A stretch of DNA of 58,942 nt, taken from positions 1 through 58,942 of IMG/VR virus record IMGVR_UViG_3300032328_000544, one strand, 5' to 3'. The position numbers and the translations under genes were made by a program. Under the pieces are notes generated by a model that was not told the origin of the DNA, made no database searches, and was given only the letters and a program-made list of their open reading frames with translations. Positions 613-30,501 of the stretch are shown in pieces. Every line of letters starts with the position of its first letter. Within the stretch, counting starts at the first letter, position 1. Source of the DNA: a virus. Lineage: Duplodnaviria > Caudoviricetes.

Positions 613-2499
613 TTATCCGTTGCGCTTACCTACGCTGGCCAATGCGCTGGCCGCTGCTTGACCGATGACCGTAGCGACATCCGCTGGTGAGGAGGTCGGG
701 TCGAAGTAGACCGCCTTGCCGTCAGTACCGCGAAGGTACGCTTGGGGCTGACCGTCACTCCTAAAGGTAATCCAGAGAACAGCCGTGCCAGCCTTGTCAG
801 CATCCGCGATGTGTTGCTTAGCCTTTTTCTGCTGGTCGTCACGGTAGTGTCCGTCGGACACAACCACGAGCAACCGCGCACCGTTCTGAGCATCGGTGAA
901 GTCCAGCGCACCGTCAAGTGCGAGGAACGCCTTGTCGAACTCTTCCGTGCCGTCGGGCGCAGAGTAGACCACAACATCGTTCAGGTGTTGCCCCGGCTTG
1001 AGAGTCGGGAACACGCCAGAGCCGTAATAGACCATCGCGCACTTGCCCTGAACTCGGCGTACTGCCTCGCTCATAACCCACGCAGTCGATGCCATAGGTT
1101 CCATCGCTCGACCCATTGAGCCAGAGATATCAACCATTACGCCAACGCGCAGTTCGGGAGTTTCAGTCTGCTTGCGCTTAGTCTGTCTCCACGCCTCGAC
1201 AGGGGTGCGAACACCCTTCTCCTTGAGCGCGGCTCCTTGAATCATAGCGCGAGAGCGAAGTCGTCCTGGCGGAATCACGGCGTTGTGTTCAGTGACACCA
1301 CGCTCACGATACTTAGCCTTCTCAAGAGCAGAGCCAACTCGCACAGCGGCGATACGCTCGTCACTTGTGGGCTTACGAGTTTCGACTACAGTCGAGCCAC
1401 TCTTTTTGTAACCACCAGGTGTGCTGCCAATGCCACCTTCTTTATTGAACATTTCTTCAGCAGCCTTGGCACGACCCTTACGCTTGTCAGCGTGCTTGGC
1501 ACGCGCCTCGCGTTCTTCGCGCCACTCTTCATCGACTTGGGCATCAGCGATATCGTTTTGATTGGCAATCTTAATGTTCTCAGCCATTTCTTTGAGAGCA
1601 TCTTTGATAGCCTCGCCAAATTCCTCAGGTGACATTCCACCCTTGCCGGGCATCGGGGTTCCCCCCTCACCCTCAGGTTTGCCTTCGTCATCGCCGGGGA
1701 CAAAGCCTCCACCTTCGCCCTCGTCATCGCCGGGTTCATCTCCAGCGAGAGCATCAAGAATGTCGTTCCATTCTTTTGCAAGGTCGAGCAGGGGCAAGAA
1801 GTTGTCGTGGTCAGCGTGCGCTTGGAATCGTTCCCATACGCTACGCAACTTCTCAATCGTCTCAGCATCAAAGTAAGTCTTGATAATAAGCGAGAGAGGT
1901 TCGATATCTTCTTCCTCCAGAACGCCAGCACTTACTCGCGCCATCGTGAGGGCGCAGAGTGAAGAAACGCTACGAGGCGTAGGTTTGAAGTCTTCGTTCT
2001 TTTCGAGAATGTCAGCGACTACGATTTCCATAGCGCAAGAGCGAAGGAAGACTCGATTTTCGGGGTGGTAGTGAATACCCCACGCCTCGATACGACTCTC
2101 TTCCAAGTAGTGAACAACACTGAAGTCTTTGACTCGATTACGAGAAACAAGTTCAGCGTGAGCAGCAGACAAATCGAATCGTGAGAATCGTGCGTGGCAC
2201 GCCTCGTGAAAGATTGCGCCAGAGGCTACAGGGAAATCGAGTTGGGTCATACGAGTATCGAAATCACCAACAAGGTGTGGTGCCGCGAACTTACCAAAGG
2301 CGGCTTCGATGTTTACTTCGATTTCTGCGTTCATTGGATTGAACATTGCAGGTGCGCCGCTGGCAGTCTTTTCGCCAAGCATAACAACGAGGTCATCTCG
2401 AATTGACCACTTGTTTACAAGTTTGCCAATCCCAGCACCAACGCCAAGCCATTCAGCCGGGGTTCGCGCTATTGCGTTTGTTGTAGTTGTGAAATGCAT
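613..2499 (-). CDS. VWA-domain protein with N-terminal HExxH region (MoxR partner, CobT-like)
   Basis: MIDAS DISGS..T..SDG, FHEACH and LEESRIE motifs, acidic Gly/Pro linker; adjacent to a MoxR ATPase. Confidence 0.85.
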   Translation of the reverse strand: MHFTTTTNAIARTPAEWLGVGAGIGKLVNKWSIRDDLVVMLGEKTASGAPAMFNPMNAEIEVNIEAAFGKFAAPHLVGDFDTRMTQLDFPVASGAIFHEACHARFSRFDLSAAHAELVSRNRVKDFSVVHYLEESRIEAWGIHYHPENRVFLRSCAMEIVVADILEKNEDFKPTPRSVSSLCALTMARVSAGVLEEEDIEPLSLIIKTYFDAETIEKLRSVWERFQAHADHDNFLPLLDLAKEWNDILDALAGDEPGDDEGEGGGFVPGDDEGKPEGEGGTPMPGKGGMSPEEFGEAIKDALKEMAENIKIANQNDIADAQVDEEWREEREARAKHADKRKGRAKAAEEMFNKEGGIGSTPGGYKKSGSTVVETRKPTSDERIAAVRVGSALEKAKYRERGVTEHNAVIPPGRLRSRAMIQGAALKEKGVRTPVEAWRQTKRKQTETPELRVGVMVDISGSMGRAMEPMASTAWVMSEAVRRVQGKCAMVYYGSGVFPTLKPGQHLNDVVVYSAPDGTEEFDKAFLALDGALDFTDAQNGARLLVVVSDGHYRDDQQKKAKQHIADADKAGTAVLWITFRSDGQPQAYLRGTDGKAVYFDPTSSPADVATVIGQAAASALASVGKRNG

Positions 2500-2534
2500 T
2501 TTTAGGTTCCTTCCTGTTTGCTATTTCTAATTTT

Positions 2535-2564
2535 AGTTTACCAGCAAATGCTGGATTTTGTCAA
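2535..2564 (-). promoter_or_regulatory. sigma70/SigA-type promoter of the VWA gene
   Basis: TTGACA-N18-TAAACT. Confidence 0.65.
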
Positions 2565-2625
2565 GTTGAGTGGGGGGTGGGGAAGTTTCCCTCAACCCAC
2601 CCCCGGAGCCAAAACCTAGGAAGGA

Positions 2626-3639
2626 TTAGATTTTGGCTGGTTTCAGTTCCTCGCCAAAGACACGAGCGAAGACATCAGACACAACTGGTCTGTCCATCTC
2701 AGGTGCGCTGGCGAGAATGTTTTGAATCGCAAACTTGAGACCAAAGACATTCGCGGCTTGCTTGAATCCCAAGAGTTCCCGGAATTGCGGCGCCCACGAG
2801 ACTTCACCAGTCTCTTGCTTACGAGCAAGGTTCTGTGCCGCTGTCACTGCCGGGGCAGGAACTCCCAACTTCTTGGCGAGTGACCAGTCAGTGGTCATTT
2901 CGACTTGAAGAAGGAATCGCGAGAGCAGGGCCTCGGAGAGGCGAACGCCGGGCGCGTTGGGGTTCGTTGCCGCTACGACATAGAACCCTTCCTTAGCCTT
3001 GACAGTGCCTCGTTCGGGGTTGGCTCGAACATCGATTTCTCGACGACCATCCATGAGACCATAGACGACTGCCATAACCTTGGGGTCAACGAGACCCACC
3101 TCGTCAATCAGCAGAACTTTACCTTCCTCTGCTGCTCGAACAAGGGGACCATCGACCCACTCAAAGTTGCCAGCAATGGTTTGGATATATCCACCAATGA
3201 AGTCGCCAACCTCAGTGTCACCAGTGCCAAGCACAGTGTAAAGGTCATCGCCAAACGCGGCCTCGACCAGTGCAGTCTTGCCACAGCCGGGTGCGCCATA
3301 GAACATCGAGTAGAGATTTTCTACACGAGCCTTGCGAAGAGCCTCGACATCGGAGTGTTCGCCCCACTTGCGAGAGAAGTAGAGTTCGCCATTGGCACGA
3401 GGGTATGAAACCTCGCCAGCCAAAGCATCAGCATCCACGACAGCCTCCAAGACAGGCAGGACAGCGGCGCCACGATTACGAATGACTGCGCGACCTACTC
3501 GTTCATTGTAGAACTTTTCGTCAGCAGCGATTGCGCGATAGCCCTCGTTGAAAGGGTGGGCGTAGAGAGCAGACACAGCCTTAGCAATGTCATCGTTCAT
3601 AAACTGAGCGTTCAGTTCTTGAATCCAGTTGTTTTCCAT
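2626..3639 (-). CDS. MoxR/CbbQ/NirQ-type AAA+ ATPase
   Basis: Walker A GAPGCGKT, Walker B LLIDE, WVDGPL, ATNP, ALLSRF. Confidence 0.9.
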   Translation of the reverse strand: MENNWIQELNAQFMNDDIAKAVSALYAHPFNEGYRAIAADEKFYNERVGRAVIRNRGAAVLPVLEAVVDADALAGEVSYPRANGELYFSRKWGEHSDVEALRKARVENLYSMFYGAPGCGKTALVEAAFGDDLYTVLGTGDTEVGDFIGGYIQTIAGNFEWVDGPLVRAAEEGKVLLIDEVGLVDPKVMAVVYGLMDGRREIDVRANPERGTVKAKEGFYVVAATNPNAPGVRLSEALLSRFLLQVEMTTDWSLAKKLGVPAPAVTAAQNLARKQETGEVSWAPQFRELLGFKQAANVFGLKFAIQNILASAPEMDRPVVSDVFARVFGEELKPAKI

Positions 3640-12164: not shown

Positions 12165-14501
12165 GTGCTACACCGCAATAGCGGTGAGGGAGAGCACCAT
12201 ATAAAAAGAGCAGTAAAAAAGTGGACGCTAATGTTGGTTGCGTCCACTCTTTTGGGTTTGGTATTTGTATTGTTTGGGGCAGTTACTGCTTTCGCATTTT
12301 TACTGCCGCCCACACAGCAAGGACAACTATCGTTGTCAGAGAGCCGAGTAACATACCGATACCCAAACTTGCTGGGTCGAGGTAGAACGATACTTGCATC
12401 GTCAATCCTTTCTTTGGCTTCTACTACTAAGTCTAGCATTGAGGACTTGAAAAGTCTATTAGCACAGCACCCCGACGCACCGAACTATTCAGCGTTGCTT
12501 GAGCGTATCCAAACTTTGGAAGCGCAACTGGATAAACTCGCTCAACTATATAGTGACGTTCAGGACAAGAAGACCGCTCTCGAAGAAGCACAGCAAAACT
12601 ACACAAGTTCTGTCGAAGCGGAGACTAAGGCTAACGCTACGTTACAAGCAGCATCTGAGAATAAAAAAGCACAGCAGGATTCTCTTACGCTAAAGCAACT
12701 CATCAGACAAGAAGCGAGCACGCAGGTTGCTGAAGCAGATGAGCAGTATGTTCTTATGTCACAGATTTATACGACTAGCCAAGAGCAACTCGCTCAACAA
12801 TTAGCCGTTTATCAAGCATCCGTTACGGATTTGAGTGCGGCACACTCACATTTGGCCTCATCACAAGCAACGTACAACACGCTTCTTCAAAGTTATAATA
12901 ACCCTAATACTTATATCGCAGACCCTAATTGGGTTGCCCCTACCGAACAGGTTGAGCGTACTCGTCAGGTTGAGAACACGACCACAAGAATAGAGACGCA
13001 AACTATTCAGAACCTTTTGTTCAACCCTAATTTTTCACAAGGTACAGAGGGTTGGTCTGGAGTTTATTCGGGGTGGCAGGGTTCTAGTCCAGCACTAATA
13101 AATGGTGAAGTTATCTTCTCGTATAGCAACCAAACAGTTAGTCAGGGTCTTTATTCTGGACCTTTCAATAACGCAGTTCTTACTCTTTCTGCTGATTGGT
13201 CGAACAACGAGACTAATCGTGGGTTCACTGACGTTTACTCTATGACCGTTCAGGCTAGGGATATCAACCAGAATCTGGTTGGCACAGCAACGTATAACTC
13301 AACGGGTTCGCACGGCTGGCAAAACAGGTCAGTCACGTTGACACCGACGGGTCCTGTTTCGTATATAACGGTTTCGTTTACGGGTATTGATTCTGGTTTT
13401 TGGTATGGCATTTACGGTCCTAGTTTCAAGAACCCCGTTCTCCACATCACGCATGACCAAGAGATTACCGAGACTACGTACACCACCGAAACTTATTATA
13501 CGACGGAGCCAGTTCTTGTACAGGGAACACTCAACGTCGACATCAACGAGGGCGGGCAAGCAACGTTTACTGCCCCAGAGGGCGCAACGTTTATTTCTAG
13601 TAACTTGCGTTACGAAGCGTATGAAGATTCAACGTGTGGCGCAAAAATTACCCCGAACGTCGACGGGCTTTCTTCGGTTACGATTCGAGCGTTGAATTCT
13701 GTATGGGGCGACCTTTGCGGTGGCTACTCAAAACATATAGTTGGAACGCTTACGTATTCGGGCTACCCAGTAGCACCTCTTATTCCTGACCCAGCAATCT
13801 ACGCTCAACTTCAGATAGCAGAGTCACAACTTACTGAAGCACAACAGAACCTCGACACGGAGAACCAAAACTTCCTTTCCGTTGTAGCAGAGAAAGAACG
13901 TCGAGAGCAAGCACTCAATGTAGCCTCAACTAATCTCACTTCTGCTGAAGCAACTCTTTCTACTAAACAAGAAGCACTCGCGTCTGCTGAACTTGACGAG
14001 CAGGAGCAGACAAGTCAGTTCAACCAAGCGGAACTCAACCACGCTATTGCTCTATCAGAACACCAGTCAGCGCAAGAGTTCACAGCGTCTATGCAACAGC
14101 GAGTTACGTCACAGAACCAGCAGTACGAGACAGCACAGCAAGAAGCCGACACCCTCTCCACGCAGGTTGACGAAGACTACCAATCTCTTTCCACTGAAGT
14201 TTCCAGCATTCAACCAGCACCAGTTCCAGAGGAAGAGCCACTTATTGATTTGGCAGCGGTTCCTGTTTTGGGTGAAGCGCTTTCAGCACTGTCGGATGTC
14301 GGAGAAGCGTTGGCAAACATTGGTTCGGATATGTCCCCAGAGGTTCGGGATAAGGCAGAGAAAGTTGTTTTGTCAGCGATTGTTGTTACGCAGATAGCAA
14401 CACAGGCGGCGCAAATTGCAACGCAAGCAGCCGCAGCCTCTGCGAGCGCCGCAGCGTCAAGTTCTGGTTCTGGTTCTAGTTCAGCAGGAAGGAGGAAGTA
14501 A
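12165..14501 (+). CDS. large membrane-anchored coiled-coil protein with a central beta-sandwich (carbohydrate-binding-like) region
   Basis: N-terminal hydrophobic helix, Q/A/E-rich coils flanking an NLLFNPNF..G..GW domain, hydrophobic Ala-rich C-terminus; start uncertain. Confidence 0.65.
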   Translation: MLHRNSGEGEHHIKRAVKKWTLMLVASTLLGLVFVLFGAVTAFAFLLPPTQQGQLSLSESRVTYRYPNLLGRGRTILASSILSLASTTKSSIEDLKSLLAQHPDAPNYSALLERIQTLEAQLDKLAQLYSDVQDKKTALEEAQQNYTSSVEAETKANATLQAASENKKAQQDSLTLKQLIRQEASTQVAEADEQYVLMSQIYTTSQEQLAQQLAVYQASVTDLSAAHSHLASSQATYNTLLQSYNNPNTYIADPNWVAPTEQVERTRQVENTTTRIETQTIQNLLFNPNFSQGTEGWSGVYSGWQGSSPALINGEVIFSYSNQTVSQGLYSGPFNNAVLTLSADWSNNETNRGFTDVYSMTVQARDINQNLVGTATYNSTGSHGWQNRSVTLTPTGPVSYITVSFTGIDSGFWYGIYGPSFKNPVLHITHDQEITETTYTTETYYTTEPVLVQGTLNVDINEGGQATFTAPEGATFISSNLRYEAYEDSTCGAKITPNVDGLSSVTIRALNSVWGDLCGGYSKHIVGTLTYSGYPVAPLIPDPAIYAQLQIAESQLTEAQQNLDTENQNFLSVVAEKERREQALNVASTNLTSAEATLSTKQEALASAELDEQEQTSQFNQAELNHAIALSEHQSAQEFTASMQQRVTSQNQQYETAQQEADTLSTQVDEDYQSLSTEVSSIQPAPVPEEEPLIDLAAVPVLGEALSALSDVGEALANIGSDMSPEVRDKAEKVVLSAIVVTQIATQAAQIATQAAAASASAAASSSGSGSSSAGRRK

Positions 14502-27206: not shown

Positions 27207-27307
27207 AGTTTTAGTAGTCTTTCTCTCTTGATAGTGGCTTGAAAATTGGTTGGATTTCTAGTGTACCCGAAGTTGTAAACCCCAAGTTTGGCGTTACAAT
27301 GGTGGTT

Positions 27308-27928
27308 ATGGATGAAGAAAAAACAACCTCTCTCCCTTGGGAACCTTTGAGCAAGGCAGAGCCAGTAAACCCGCCCCCAGCACCCGAAAAAGGTCTGGCT
27401 AACATCGTTCAGGAAGGTTTTTTTGACGTTTCAAAGAGCGTCACTCCTTCGGAAGAACGCACCGTAGACGAAAAAACTGAATCGAAAATTTCTGGCAACA
27501 GAATTGACCCAGACTCTCGCGGGGTACTTCTTCTCGCAGTGTCTTTGGTAATGATTCTGATGATTTCATCGTTCGTCGTTTCGTTCTTCGGGATTTGGGG
27601 AATTGCCGCTGAAACCACAAATATCCCCCAGCCCATTACGTGGATTCCCGCACTGTTCCTTGACGCGGCAATCCTTGCTTACACAATTAGTTACTTTGTG
27701 TTCCAGTCTCGTGGTGAACCAGTGTGGCGAACAAGATTAGCGTTGTGGACTTTTGCACTTTTGTCTGTCGCTGCTAACATCGCACACACTATCCAAATCT
27801 TTACGCCTGAAACCTCTCTTATAAATATCATAGTTGGAATTGGAATTACGGCATCGGCACCTGTCGCTGTTGTCCTTGCTTCGGAAGAAGTCGCTCGTCT
27901 TGCCTTCAAAAAGCCACGCACTAAATAA
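27308..27928 (+). CDS. DUF2637-like four-TM membrane protein
   Basis: SF..I..A, W.PA.F.D, SVAANIAH, APVAV; leaderless TACAAT-N7-ATG. Confidence 0.65.
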   Translation: MDEEKTTSLPWEPLSKAEPVNPPPAPEKGLANIVQEGFFDVSKSVTPSEERTVDEKTESKISGNRIDPDSRGVLLLAVSLVMILMISSFVVSFFGIWGIAAETTNIPQPITWIPALFLDAAILAYTISYFVFQSRGEPVWRTRLALWTFALLSVAANIAHTIQIFTPETSLINIIVGIGITASAPVAVVLASEEVARLAFKKPRTK

Positions 27929-27935
27929 GTAGAAA

Positions 27936-27970
27936 CAAAAAAGCCCCTCGCTCACGCGGGGGGCTTTTTC
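27936..27970. terminator. bidirectional terminator
   Basis: AAAAAGCCCCTCG..CGGGGGGCTTTTT. Confidence 0.75.
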
Positions 27971-28039
27971 GTGTGTAGTTTGGGTGTCTTGGAGACCCAC
28001 TCCCTCAGAGGCTGGGGCGTCCACGCCTACACTACGCCG

Positions 28040-28112
28040 AGCGAATGCTTGGGATTTGAACCCAGACCTCTGACTTGGAAAGCCAGTGTTCTACCTAATG
28101 AACTTCATCCGC
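28040..28112 (-). tRNA. tRNA-Gly(TCC)
   Basis: Acceptor GCGGATG/CATTCGC, U73, D stem GTTC/GAAC, loop TTTCCAA; the T arm carries one extra nucleotide. Confidence 0.8.
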
Positions 28113-28114
28113 AT

Positions 28115-28167
28115 GAGGGCTTACGAGATTCGAACTCGTTCCGATATTAGTCGGCTCCTTTAGCCCT
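28115..28167 (-). ncRNA. D-armless mini tRNA-like element
   Basis: AGGGCT/AGCCCT acceptor-like stem, CCGA-CTAATA-TCGG hairpin, perfect T arm ACGAG-TTCGAAT-CTCGT. Confidence 0.6.
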
Positions 28168-28421
28168 ACCACTGCTCTATTTACTTTTACTAAGTATCGC
28201 TGTACCTAGTAAATCAACCATAATCATTAAACACTGACTTGTCAAATTGACTCGCGAGGTCAAAACTTTCCGCTACCACAGTTGGTCAGGGGACGATGCT
28301 AACGGCATACACCATTGGCAAGCAGATACTGTATTTATTACTATAATATGTAACCCATTTTCATGGGTTGGCGTAGCCCCTCCACACTGCTAATCAAATA
28401 GGAATGCTTCGGGGCATAGCC
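28168..28421 (-). ncRNA. putative structured RNA of unknown class
   Basis: No ORF; GAAA-tetraloop hairpin, 11-bp stem with G-U, nested stems; lies between tmRNA and the tRNA-like element. Confidence 0.45.
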
Positions 28422-28422
28422 G

Positions 28423-28775
28423 TGGACGTGGCGAGATTCGAACTCGCGTCCAACCACATTTCCACTGTTCTTCTACACGCTTAGGTAGTTTGTTTTGTAT
28501 GTTCGGTGATTGACCTACCAGACACCGATTCAGACTCAATTTAAATATGTCGGCTTGAGCCATTAGCCGTACTGCTTTGGTGTCCTATTTATCTGAAACC
28601 CGACTGCCCACTTAGGACTAGTGCTTTGTCGGGGGCTACTGACTACTTATTACTAAGCAGCGAGAGCGAATGCGGAACGAGTCTTAGCATTTATTTTTGT
28701 TGACGGGTTCAAGAGATACCGTCATCTCTGCGTGCTTCACCAGATTTAATGTGACTGTCGATACCAGTCACGCCC
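28423..28775 (-). ncRNA. ssrA: tmRNA (tag AKTRSAFALAA)
   Basis: Acceptor GGGCGTG/CACGTCC-A with G3-U70, 5' TCGAC, GGAC-GCGAG-TTCGAAT-CTCGC T arm, tag ORF 28688-28653 ending LAA; 353 nt. Confidence 0.95.
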
Positions 28776-28786
28776 TAGTTGTTTCT

Positions 28787-28921
28787 CTATGTAGTTTTAT
28801 TTACGAGGCGACGCTTCTCAACGTCGAACTCTTTGGGGCGACTCTTGTTTGCCTTACCGTTCTGACGGTCAGAGTTACTTCCCTTAGCGGGTTTCTGCCC
28901 GCCACCTTTTCCTTTTGCCAT
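28787..28921 (-). CDS. 44-aa basic protein
   Basis: MAKGKGGGQKPAKGSNSDRQNGKANKSRPKEFDVEKRRLVNKTT; TAACAT-N6-ATG. Confidence 0.65.
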   Translation of the reverse strand: MAKGKGGGQKPAKGSNSDRQNGKANKSRPKEFDVEKRRLVNKTT

Positions 28922-29026
28922 AAAAATATGTTACCACAACAGAAATAGACTTGCATATCTAATAGAAGTGTGGGTATAATCAGGTATAACGTTCTTCGGA
29001 GCACAAATGACGCAAGGAATAAAAAA

Positions 29027-29873: not shown

Positions 29874-30194
29874 TCAAATATTTCGATACGTGATGCGATT
29901 TCTATAGAGTGACCGTCTCATAGATTTTCTTTGGATTTCGGTAGTGCCTCCCCAAATCCCGCTCTCTCTAGGATTTGCTAAAGCGTAGGCCAAGCAACGT
30001 TCTTTGTAGGGGCAGACAGCACACAGTTCTTTTGCTTGGCTTTCCATTTTGTACGCGGCTGCTTTAACTTTCCCGTTTTCGTCGGGCGGATTCTCTTGCG
30101 GAAAAAAAGCGTCAGGGTAAGACTCTGAGCAGGGGGGCGCTCCGAACTCGGTAAAATCTGGGTAGTCTTCGGGAAAAACATCTCTAATTTCCAT
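29874..30194 (-). CDS. whiB: WhiB family transcription factor
   Basis: C..PDAFFP..AKELCAVCP...C..GIWGG. Confidence 0.92.
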   Translation of the reverse strand: MEIRDVFPEDYPDFTEFGAPPCSESYPDAFFPQENPPDENGKVKAAAYKMESQAKELCAVCPYKERCLAYALANPRESGIWGGTTEIQRKSMRRSLYRNRITYRNI

Positions 30195-30267: not shown

Positions 30268-30501
30268 TTACGAGTAAGAGATAAAAAGTGCGTTCGCTAT
30301 TTCTTTACAGTCCACACAAATTTCAAGCCCGTCTGGGTTTTTTGACGGAATAAAAACTTTCCCGCAGATTGCTTCAATCGGCATACCCATTACGTAGGCT
30401 TCAGTTACTTTGGCGGCGTCGGCAATGTGGGCAACGGGTGGCTCGGCATTTCCTGTATCGACGTCTACGGTTGGTCGTTCAAGAGTGTCTAGCCCAGTCA
30501 T
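30268..30501 (-). CDS. DUF3039-like protein
   Basis: H......V.EA.V.G.P..AICGKVFIP...P....C..CKEI. Confidence 0.8.
   Translation of the reverse strand: MTGLDTLERPTVDVDTGNAEPPVAHIADAAKVTEAYVMGMPIEAICGKVFIPSKNPDGLEICVDCKEIANALFISYS

Follow-up and report, generated by a model that had tools for sequence, protein, structure and literature searches.

An apparently undescribed structured RNA segment in the stable-RNA gene cluster of a freshwater phage

RNAC and RNAD of phage T4, which are about 120-140 nt long, arise from tRNA precursors through cuts made by tRNA-processing enzymes. In MALAT1-mascRNA, a tRNA-like element punctuates a long transcript and is cut and CCA-tailed by tRNA enzymes, and GOLLD and ROOL are large structured RNAs that often lie beside tRNAs in phages and have Rfam models. 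Two articles mention that the T4 tRNA region yields a pair of small RNAs, named RNAC and RNAD, of unknown role (PMC3014915, PMC9697503). They are the classic cases of uncatalogued folded RNAs in phage clusters of tRNA and transfer-messenger RNA (tmRNA) genes, with roles unexplained after decades. For YrlA, a bacterial Y RNA, one report describes a tRNA-like module with the order T-arm, acceptor-like stem-loop and D-arm, a GNCGAAN0-1G motif near the 5' end and the Ro60 (rsr) gene nearby; in M. smegmatis, YrlA is cleaved by RNase P and gains CCA (PMC4201824). Here we describe a gene-free stretch of about 250 nt (28168-28421, minus strand; termed X) in a 58.9-kb IMG/VR virus record, the whole of which we call the window (completeness estimate, 44%). 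X is followed on its 3' side by a tRNA-like helix (TLS), and sequence comparison indicates that this part of a phage stable-RNA operon is a genuine structured RNA segment, which seems not to have been described before.

By analogy, X would work most like T4 RNAC and RNAD. It is likened to them by description, as a phage-encoded non-coding RNA in a tRNA gene region; it differs from them in being longer, with a modular 250-nt body and a separate D-armless tRNA-like helix, and in lying in an actinophage-like genome. With YrlA it shares a tRNA-shaped element in a non-coding transcript (for X, a predicted one), but here the order is D-like part, small hairpin, T-arm and free 3' acceptor strand, the string nearest to the GNCGAAN0-1G motif is CCCGAAG, and no Rfam Y RNA matched at E<=10. 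TROVE/Ro60 had no match among the 27 open reading frames (ORFs) scanned against Pfam, a result from a contig about 44% complete that does not support absence of rsr from the phage as a whole. TLS also resembles the tRNA-like punctuation of a non-coding transcript in MALAT1-mascRNA. GOLLD and ROOL are 2-3 times longer than X; unlike them, X has no match in Rfam. A search with 28108-28421 alone gave no family match at E<=10, and a wider search gave none at gathering thresholds, in keeping with the novelty that an earlier reading of the window from its letters alone (the sequence-only reading) had proposed. The group I intron model RF00028 likewise had no Rfam match at E<=10, and the intron mode of ARAGORN returned nothing for X or TLS. 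A tRNA with an intron was rejected, as both searches were without a match.

Relatives, fold and covariation of X

On the minus strand, the locus reads as a 44-codon basic ORF, tmRNA, X, TLS, tRNA-Gly(UCC), a 63-nt tail and an intrinsic terminator (Table 1). X thus lies, as the sequence-only reading had it, inside a run of stable-RNA genes on one strand with one terminator. The same stretch is found at ~84-86% identity in a metagenome contig (L079) and in assembled variants of the public sequencing runs X2 and X6. L079, which is 16.3 kb long, is syntenic with the window over ~14 kb (71-92% identity per aligned segment, mostly 82-89%), and its alignment spans 28039-28421 at 86%, taking in tRNA-Gly, TLS and all of X. 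Its homology ends exactly at 28421/28422, the tmRNA 3' end; upstream of X, L079 has 64 nt of unrelated sequence to the contig end and is without tmRNA. This stop at the tmRNA 3' end marks the tmRNA as a variable add-on. The X2 contig (1571 nt) covers 28117-28938, including the tmRNA region, and the X6 contig (8272 nt) covers 28039-28491 and 28581-28938, with tmRNA present. A tail of 63-69 nt behind tRNA-Gly is missing in both L079 and X6. The constant unit is X, TLS, tRNA-Gly and the terminator, and the tmRNA and the tail are variable additions. Of the placement between tmRNA and a tRNA mimic that had been proposed, the 3' side stands, with tRNA-like structures in every copy, and the 5' side does not, since L079 has no tmRNA in front. 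Full sequences compared below are those of the window and L079; for X2 and X6, we refer to the differences listed for each.

Parts of a 1-kb query were found in 20 runs from 10 studies, mostly labelled freshwater or lake, and 4 of the 20 runs were compared with the window at contig level. Other searches returned little. Blastn against 50,697 phage records gave no match to X, and protein-anchored searches with two flanking genes gave no relatives. A neighbour search with the ribonucleotide reductase (RNR) gene gave 33 related loci whose synteny ends at that gene; none of the 33 records had a tmRNA above cut-off, and blastn found X in none. Pattern scans of the viral contig collection gave 0 matches for TLS, for the 5' double hairpin (H1-H2), for block 1 and for block 3; a scan of the genome contig collection for H1-H2 gave 0 matches, and a single metagenome scan led to one contig, L079. 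Covariance models of two modules (R1 and R2) recovered both positive controls, the window and L079, and found nothing in 45 other viral records except one match at E 0.22.

Substitutions between the window and L079 affect 15.9% of aligned positions in X proper, compared with 22.7%, 39.5%, 43.3% and 31.2% of third codon positions in four neighbouring genes. Divergence below third-codon-position levels argues for purifying selection on X. The stretch is kept in diverged relatives (L079, X2 and X6) with pair-preserving changes, which bears out the conservation that the sequence-only reading had named as a check. It had also reported no ORF, and we found none of conserved length in X and TLS between the window and L079: the ORFs that touch the stretch are only 38-57 aa long, and inside X and TLS the window has three of at least 20 aa (21, 28 and 48 aa) where L079 has two (22 and 20 aa). 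A mini-frame beginning AUG CCG UUA GCA UCG UCC CCU has 11 codons in the window (28308-28273, minus strand) and 10 in L079 (13661-13629, minus strand). It falls within the central-domain block that is best conserved, is without a clear ribosome-binding site, and the X2 changes there are non-synonymous; we read it as chance.

X and TLS together (309 nt, minus strand) fold at -91.2 kcal/mol (z -2.83), which none of 100 shuffles equalled; the plus strand gave z -2.15, with 2 of 100 shuffles as good. Minimum free energies on the minus strand were -91.2 (window) and -89.1 kcal/mol (L079), versus -80.3 and -67.8 kcal/mol on the plus strand. The 5' part is a double hairpin (H1 and H2, 28421-28350) that folds at -33.3 kcal/mol (z -4.81, 0/200 shuffles). 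The 3' strand of H1 contains one copy of a repeated motif discussed below (copy A), and in L079 this hairpin has a compensatory pair at 28403/28388 and a C-G to U-G change at 28401/28390. H2, the AACCCAT-GAAA-ATGGGTT hairpin that had been noted at 28369-28352, is there as described; being invariant, it gives no covariation evidence. The AU-rich linker that follows has a 6-nt deletion and many changes in L079 and lower depth in X2, and X6 has deletions of 1, 1, 1 and 3 nt between 28331 and 28349 (among the differences listed). The central domain is drawn together by a closing helix (28325-28315/28245-28234) around hairpins at 28310-28295, 28293-28269 and 28262-28248, the last containing the TTGAC/GTCAA pairing seen earlier at 28263-28247. 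One stem of the sequence-only reading, CTGCTTGCCA/TGGTAGCGG, had the wrong partner: CTGCTTGCCA covaries with TTGACAAGTCAG at 28245-28234, with two compensatory pairs in L079, and TGGTAGCGG belongs to the hairpin at 28293-28269, where it forms the 3' strand. The 11-bp stem TTTACTAGGTA/TACTTAGTAAA at 28213-28186 (H6), with its one G-U pair, was found again and is also an inverted repeat; among 10 pairs compared with L079, one carries a compensatory change and four have changed on one side in a G-U-compatible way.

A motif had been said to recur at both ends of X. Both copies are present in the window (copy A, AGCAGTGTGGAGGGGCTA, 28391-28374; copy B, AGCAGTGGTAGGGCTA, 28176-28161), but relatives have not kept the repeat: L079 differs within the AGCAGTG portion of copy A, and 28172-28177, which belong to copy B and to the conserved linker AAGUAAAUAGAGCAGUGG, are absent from X2. 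The conserved core is GG(N)GGGCUA, which in copy A is a strand of H1 and in copy B is the 5' acceptor strand of TLS.

Table 1. Features of the stable-RNA locus in the window, listed 5' to 3' along the minus strand
Feature	Positions	Strand	Basis or remarks
Basic ORF, 44 codons	28921-28787	-	
tmRNA, variable add-on	28420..28775	-	RF00023, 125.6 bits (model positions 1-374); ARAGORN 28422-28775
H1, irregular 5' hairpin, 3+5+5+3 pairs	28370..28421	-	Folds; starts at first base after tmRNA
H2, 7-bp hairpin with GAAA loop	28352..28369	-	Identical in L079
AU-rich linker, variable in sequence and length	28326..28351	-	Deletions in L079 and X6
Central multi-helix domain	28234..28325	-	RNAalifold; covarying pairs in L079 and X2
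H6, 11-bp hairpin with 6-nt loop	28186..28213	-	z -4.25, 0/200 shuffles
Conserved linker AAGUAAAUAGAGCAGUGG, including start of motif copy B	28168..28185	-	Identical in L079; tRNA D-arm likeness
TLS, D-armless tRNA-like minihelix	28116..28167	-	Folds at -17.4 kcal/mol, z -1.90, 9/200 shuffles
tRNA-Gly(UCC)	28039..28112	-	ARAGORN; RF00005, 59.4 bits; 100% identical in L079
Window-specific structured tail, tRNA-Gly to terminator	27976..28038	-	Without counterpart in L079; skipped in X6 contig
Intrinsic terminator, G+C stem then U run	27936..27975	-	Inverted repeat; conserved in L079

RNAalifold gave 75 pairs for the window and L079, 5 of them with compensatory changes. In our own version of the structure, with 73 pairs, we counted 5 both-side changes, 7 one-sided changes that still pair and 1 broken pair, whereas sliding the partners by 1-3 columns as a control left 0-2 both-side changes and 28-46% paired cells (99% in the real structure). 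Compensatory pairs in the central domain of L079 are 28322/28238, 28319/28241 and 28262/28248. Among the differences listed for X2, double changes that keep a pair occur at 28262/28248, 28261/28249, 28259/28251 and 28283/28278, the first of which is common to X2, L079 and X6. Because the consensus structure was fitted to the same two sequences, we ran a null test in which 49 substitutions were placed at random positions in 150 sets. When pairs are scored on a fold predicted from the window only, in which 28325-28320 face 28179-28174 as an alternative to the closing helix, the changes of L079 break 9 of them; the random sets averaged 16.4, and just 1 of the 150 did as well. Every one-sided change is a C-G/U-G or A-U/G-U switch, and such switches pair only on the minus strand and place the structure on that strand, the tmRNA strand that the sequence-only reading had chosen.

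We conclude from these comparisons that X forms a minus-strand RNA structure that is moderately constrained. Its build resembles a set of distinct modules with a variable linker between them, rather than one compact fold. We regard as firm the double hairpin at the 5' end, the inner part of the closing helix (28322-28315/28245-28238) and the hairpins 28293-28269 and 28262-28248; the helix 28310-28295 is doubtful, as is the 11-bp hairpin beyond the pair of window and L079.

The tRNA-like end

TLS has an acceptor-like stem, AGGGCU/AGCCCU, of 6 pairs and an A-A, and a T-arm, ACGAG-UUCGAAU-CUCGU, that runs directly into AAGCCCU, so that a UUCRANY loop sits on the acceptor stack. The T-loop is canonical and the stack of acceptor and T-arm has the length found in tRNA, a geometry by which RNase P and CCA-adding enzymes recognise their substrates. 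Its 3' half is 100% identical in L079, and the middle hairpin (4 bp, 6-nt loop) loses one pair there. C28115 and AU follow TLS, and then G1 of tRNA-Gly. TLS is not a tRNA cloverleaf: it lacks a D-arm and an anticodon arm of 5 bp and 7 nt, and ARAGORN (default and relaxed) and Rfam gave no match. In a local alignment, the linker and TLS together resemble the phage tRNA-Arg from D-arm to T-loop (score 29; 6 of 500 shuffles did as well), and we consider TLS probably tRNA-derived. With TLS excluded, likeness of X to tRNA-Gly or tRNA-Arg was rejected, since 370 and 254 of 500 shuffles, respectively, scored as high.

The T-arm of TLS has 15 nt in common with that of the adjacent tmRNA. Like the tRNA-like domain of tmRNA, or of a two-piece tmRNA, TLS is an acceptor and T-arm without an anticodon arm, and it lies beside a tmRNA; unlike these, it has no D-loop analogue, tag frame or model match, no pseudoknots were found, and G3 of its acceptor faces C (G3-C70), as opposed to G3-U70 in the neighbouring tmRNA.

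A processed RNA and the other readings of the locus

The reading we favour, tentatively and with slightly less than even confidence, is that X is a discrete processed small RNA of the phage stable-RNA operon with a role of its own. X, TLS and tRNA-Gly would be transcribed as one precursor ending at the terminator, in some variants with the tmRNA in front. RNase P would cut at 28113/28112, the tRNA-Gly 5' end, and perhaps also at 28168/28167 on the 5' side of TLS, and the tmRNA 3' end, where present, would be trimmed at 28422/28421. The predicted product is a separate RNA of ~250-300 nt, protected by the 5' hairpin and the tRNA-like 3' end, which could accept a CCA tail; a split at the AU-rich linker might instead give a 70-nt RNA and a 180-230-nt RNA. 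Such a product would act like RNAC and RNAD of T4, small stable phage RNAs that are produced along with tRNAs. In the upstream sequence of L079, an extended -10-like element, TGTTATCAT, ends 7 nt before GGCUAUG (read by eye; a consensus scan that needs a -35 did not call it), and a promoter of the unit's own is probable in this one variant.

A bolder version, to which we give little credence, would make X and TLS a new class of tRNA-tailed phage effector RNA. TLS would bring in RNase P and the CCA-adding enzyme, and perhaps also EF-Tu or a synthetase. The covarying body would attach to a host factor, such as a ribonuclease, a part of the ribosome-rescue machinery or a defence protein directed at tRNAs. 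In the variants with a tmRNA in front, the two RNAs would work as a pair and rewire the quality control of host translation.

A number of results weigh against a constrained, processed RNA. The consensus fold was fitted to the two sequences on which it is judged, and in the null test 8 of the 150 sets also yielded 5 compensatory pairs under RNAalifold and 4 of 150 matched the consensus energy. The evidence comes from two full sequences, plus partial difference lists of two variants. Among the differences listed, X2 breaks 28310/28295 and 28308/28296 and the outermost pairs of the closing helix (28325/28234 and 28324/28235), and H6 is mostly not kept there, its lower half being broken. The structure claimed by the sequence-only reading beats shuffles in the 5' double hairpin and the 11-bp hairpin; it does not in the central 96 nt, which on their own give z +0.19 with 110 of 200 shuffles as good, and TLS reaches only the value in Table 1. 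On each strand, X retains sigma-70-like hexamers in both the window and L079, so part of the constraint could be at the DNA level. As far as the searches go, X is also limited to one narrow freshwater phage lineage so far.

Some of these results suit other explanations, of which a cis-acting structured leader or spacer is unlikely but deserves serious weight. X and TLS would here guide the folding, processing or stability of the precursor of tRNA-Gly (and tmRNA) and then be degraded, like the spacers of rRNA and tRNA operons. X always lies directly 5' of tRNA-Gly, which is fully conserved; the linker and the central part are variable, and the central domain lacks unusual stability. In the window, moreover, 12 nt of the tail behind tRNA-Gly (28018-28029) are 92% complementary to 28417-28428, the junction of the tmRNA 3' end and the X start, and could close X, TLS and tRNA-Gly in a long-range stem. 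This end-to-end complementarity is nonetheless confined to the window, as neither L079 nor X6 has the tail; compensatory change keeps pairing in several separate helices; and tRNAs in many arrays of related phages are spaced by 0-10 nt, which makes a folded leader of ~310 nt unnecessary for tRNA maturation. We think it improbable that X and TLS are functionless relics of tRNA or tmRNA genes decaying in a fast-turning phage RNA array. The alignment of TLS and motif copy B to phage tRNA-Arg, the T-arm identity with the tmRNA, short tmRNA-like strings in X and the differing RNA gene content of close relatives all suit such an origin, but X without TLS shows no significant tRNA likeness, its tmRNA likeness is weak and not collinear (score 34, 2/300 shuffles), a tmRNA-like stop cluster in the linker is not kept in L079, and the divergence and preserved pairs described above speak against decay. 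That X is a selfish structured insert, a protein-less mobile RNA-like element of ~200 nt within a tRNA-like gene, with the motif copies as its target-site duplication, seems very improbable. Imperfect direct repeats of 16-18 nt (up to ~28 nt with flanks) do bracket 28374-28177. Against this, no empty site or second copy turned up (four blocks gave 0 matches in viral contigs, H1-H2 gave 0 in genome contigs, and neither the window nor L079 yielded a second copy to the covariance models), relatives do not keep the repeat, with copy A altered in L079 and copy B partly missing in X2, and copy A forms one of the paired strands in the conserved hairpin at the 5' end.

Regulation at the DNA level has a slimmer chance still. 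The conserved blocks would then be promoters, internal ones on the minus strand for TLS and tRNA-Gly or antisense ones on the plus strand, and candidates exist for both: TTGACA-17-TATGGT at 28245-28217 with TTGATA-17-TATGGT in L079 (13571-13599, minus strand), and, on the plus strand, TTGGCA-18-TACTAT at 28315-28344 with TTGATA-18-TATAAT (11/12) in L079 at 13674-13703. The window has 2 such matches against a shuffle mean of 2.1 and the L079 stretch 3 against 0.9 (sd 1.0), however, and promoters leave the covarying hairpins unexplained. The change that L079 shows in a -35-like hexamer also has a compensating partner 78 nt upstream (pair 28319/28241), which fits RNA pairing and not promoter function. 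Least probable of all, and nearly negligible, is a second degenerate tmRNA, in which X and TLS would be a paralogue of the neighbouring one that is permuted or has no tag. The shared T-arm could be taken that way, as could a weak alignment of the permuted tmRNA model RF04321 to the tmRNA 3' domain and the X start (14.3 bits, E 0.66, cut-off 47) and the permuted tmRNAs carried by 9 of 12 viral contigs with the same tmRNA T-arm 22-mer. That alignment appeared only with the true tmRNA 3' domain (T-arm) included; X and TLS alone matched neither RF00023 nor RF04321. ARAGORN found no tag frame with a resume codon by default, -ps or -ps85, and its -ps70 calls were implausible and overlapped other genes. 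The acceptor has G3-C70 and not G3-U70, and X of L079 has no tmRNA 3' domain in front. A second or permuted tmRNA is thus largely refuted by the model, ARAGORN, acceptor and L079 evidence.

If X is a processed small RNA, as we favour, its minimal tRNA-like end could help explain how tRNA-maturation enzymes of the host serve phages in making and stabilising RNAs that are not tRNAs. The locus is useful in this respect, as it is small and well bounded, with one terminator and natural variants with and without tmRNA. Its importance is modest, because it is confined so far to one uncultured freshwater phage lineage.

Genomic context and related elements

The window encodes a primase-helicase, a family A DNA polymerase, the RNR small subunit, a deoxynucleoside monophosphate kinase, Mom and methyltransferases. 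It also carries genes for WhiB (29874-30194, minus strand), DUF3039 (30268-30501, minus strand) and DUF2637 (27239-27928, plus strand), families typical of Actinobacteria and their phages. These three genes indicate an actinobacterial host, probably a freshwater actinobacterium. The tmRNA encodes the tag AKTRSAFALAA and has the acceptor GGGCGUG/CACGUCC with G3-U70; CCA is not encoded. A scan of the genome contig collection for this tag gave 0 matches, and no host is therefore named from it. A weak Thr_leader alignment has its terminator part on the intrinsic terminator. At 613-3639 (minus strand), a 628-aa protein with a weak C-terminal vWA match adjoins an AAA_5 (MoxR/CobS-like) ATPase; it was considered as a Ro60-like partner of a Y RNA, and it has no PHROG relative and no PDB relative at E<=1.

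RNA gene content varies between close relatives. In the X6 contig, 28492-28580 of the tmRNA are replaced by 72 other letters, and a contig from the RNA-library run X19 has the same replacement with a different T-arm flank, which points to a close relative of the tmRNA body elsewhere, in another phage or in the host. The contigs of RNA-library runs X19 and X20 cover only the tmRNA body part 28466-28750, then continue in unlike sequence, and do not cover X; as assembled contigs, they are uninformative on its transcription. Two phage contigs, each with an RNR that shares 95% identity with the one in the window, carry a tmRNA-like tRNA-like domain of ~80 nt alone, between an upstream hairpin and a terminator (L012:3416-3495, plus strand; L023:3181-3260). 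Its acceptor is GGGCCAG/CUGGUCC with G3-U70, its T-arm is CCCAG-UUCGAUU-CUGGG, and a long hairpin stands at the place of the tmRNA body; ARAGORN made no call, and Rfam gave only beta_tmRNA at 11.7 bits. The nine viral contigs with the tmRNA T-arm 22-mer and circularly permuted tmRNAs (L067, L069-L073 and L075-L077) encode tags such as ANDEQFALAA, and several of these genes sit inside large tRNA arrays.

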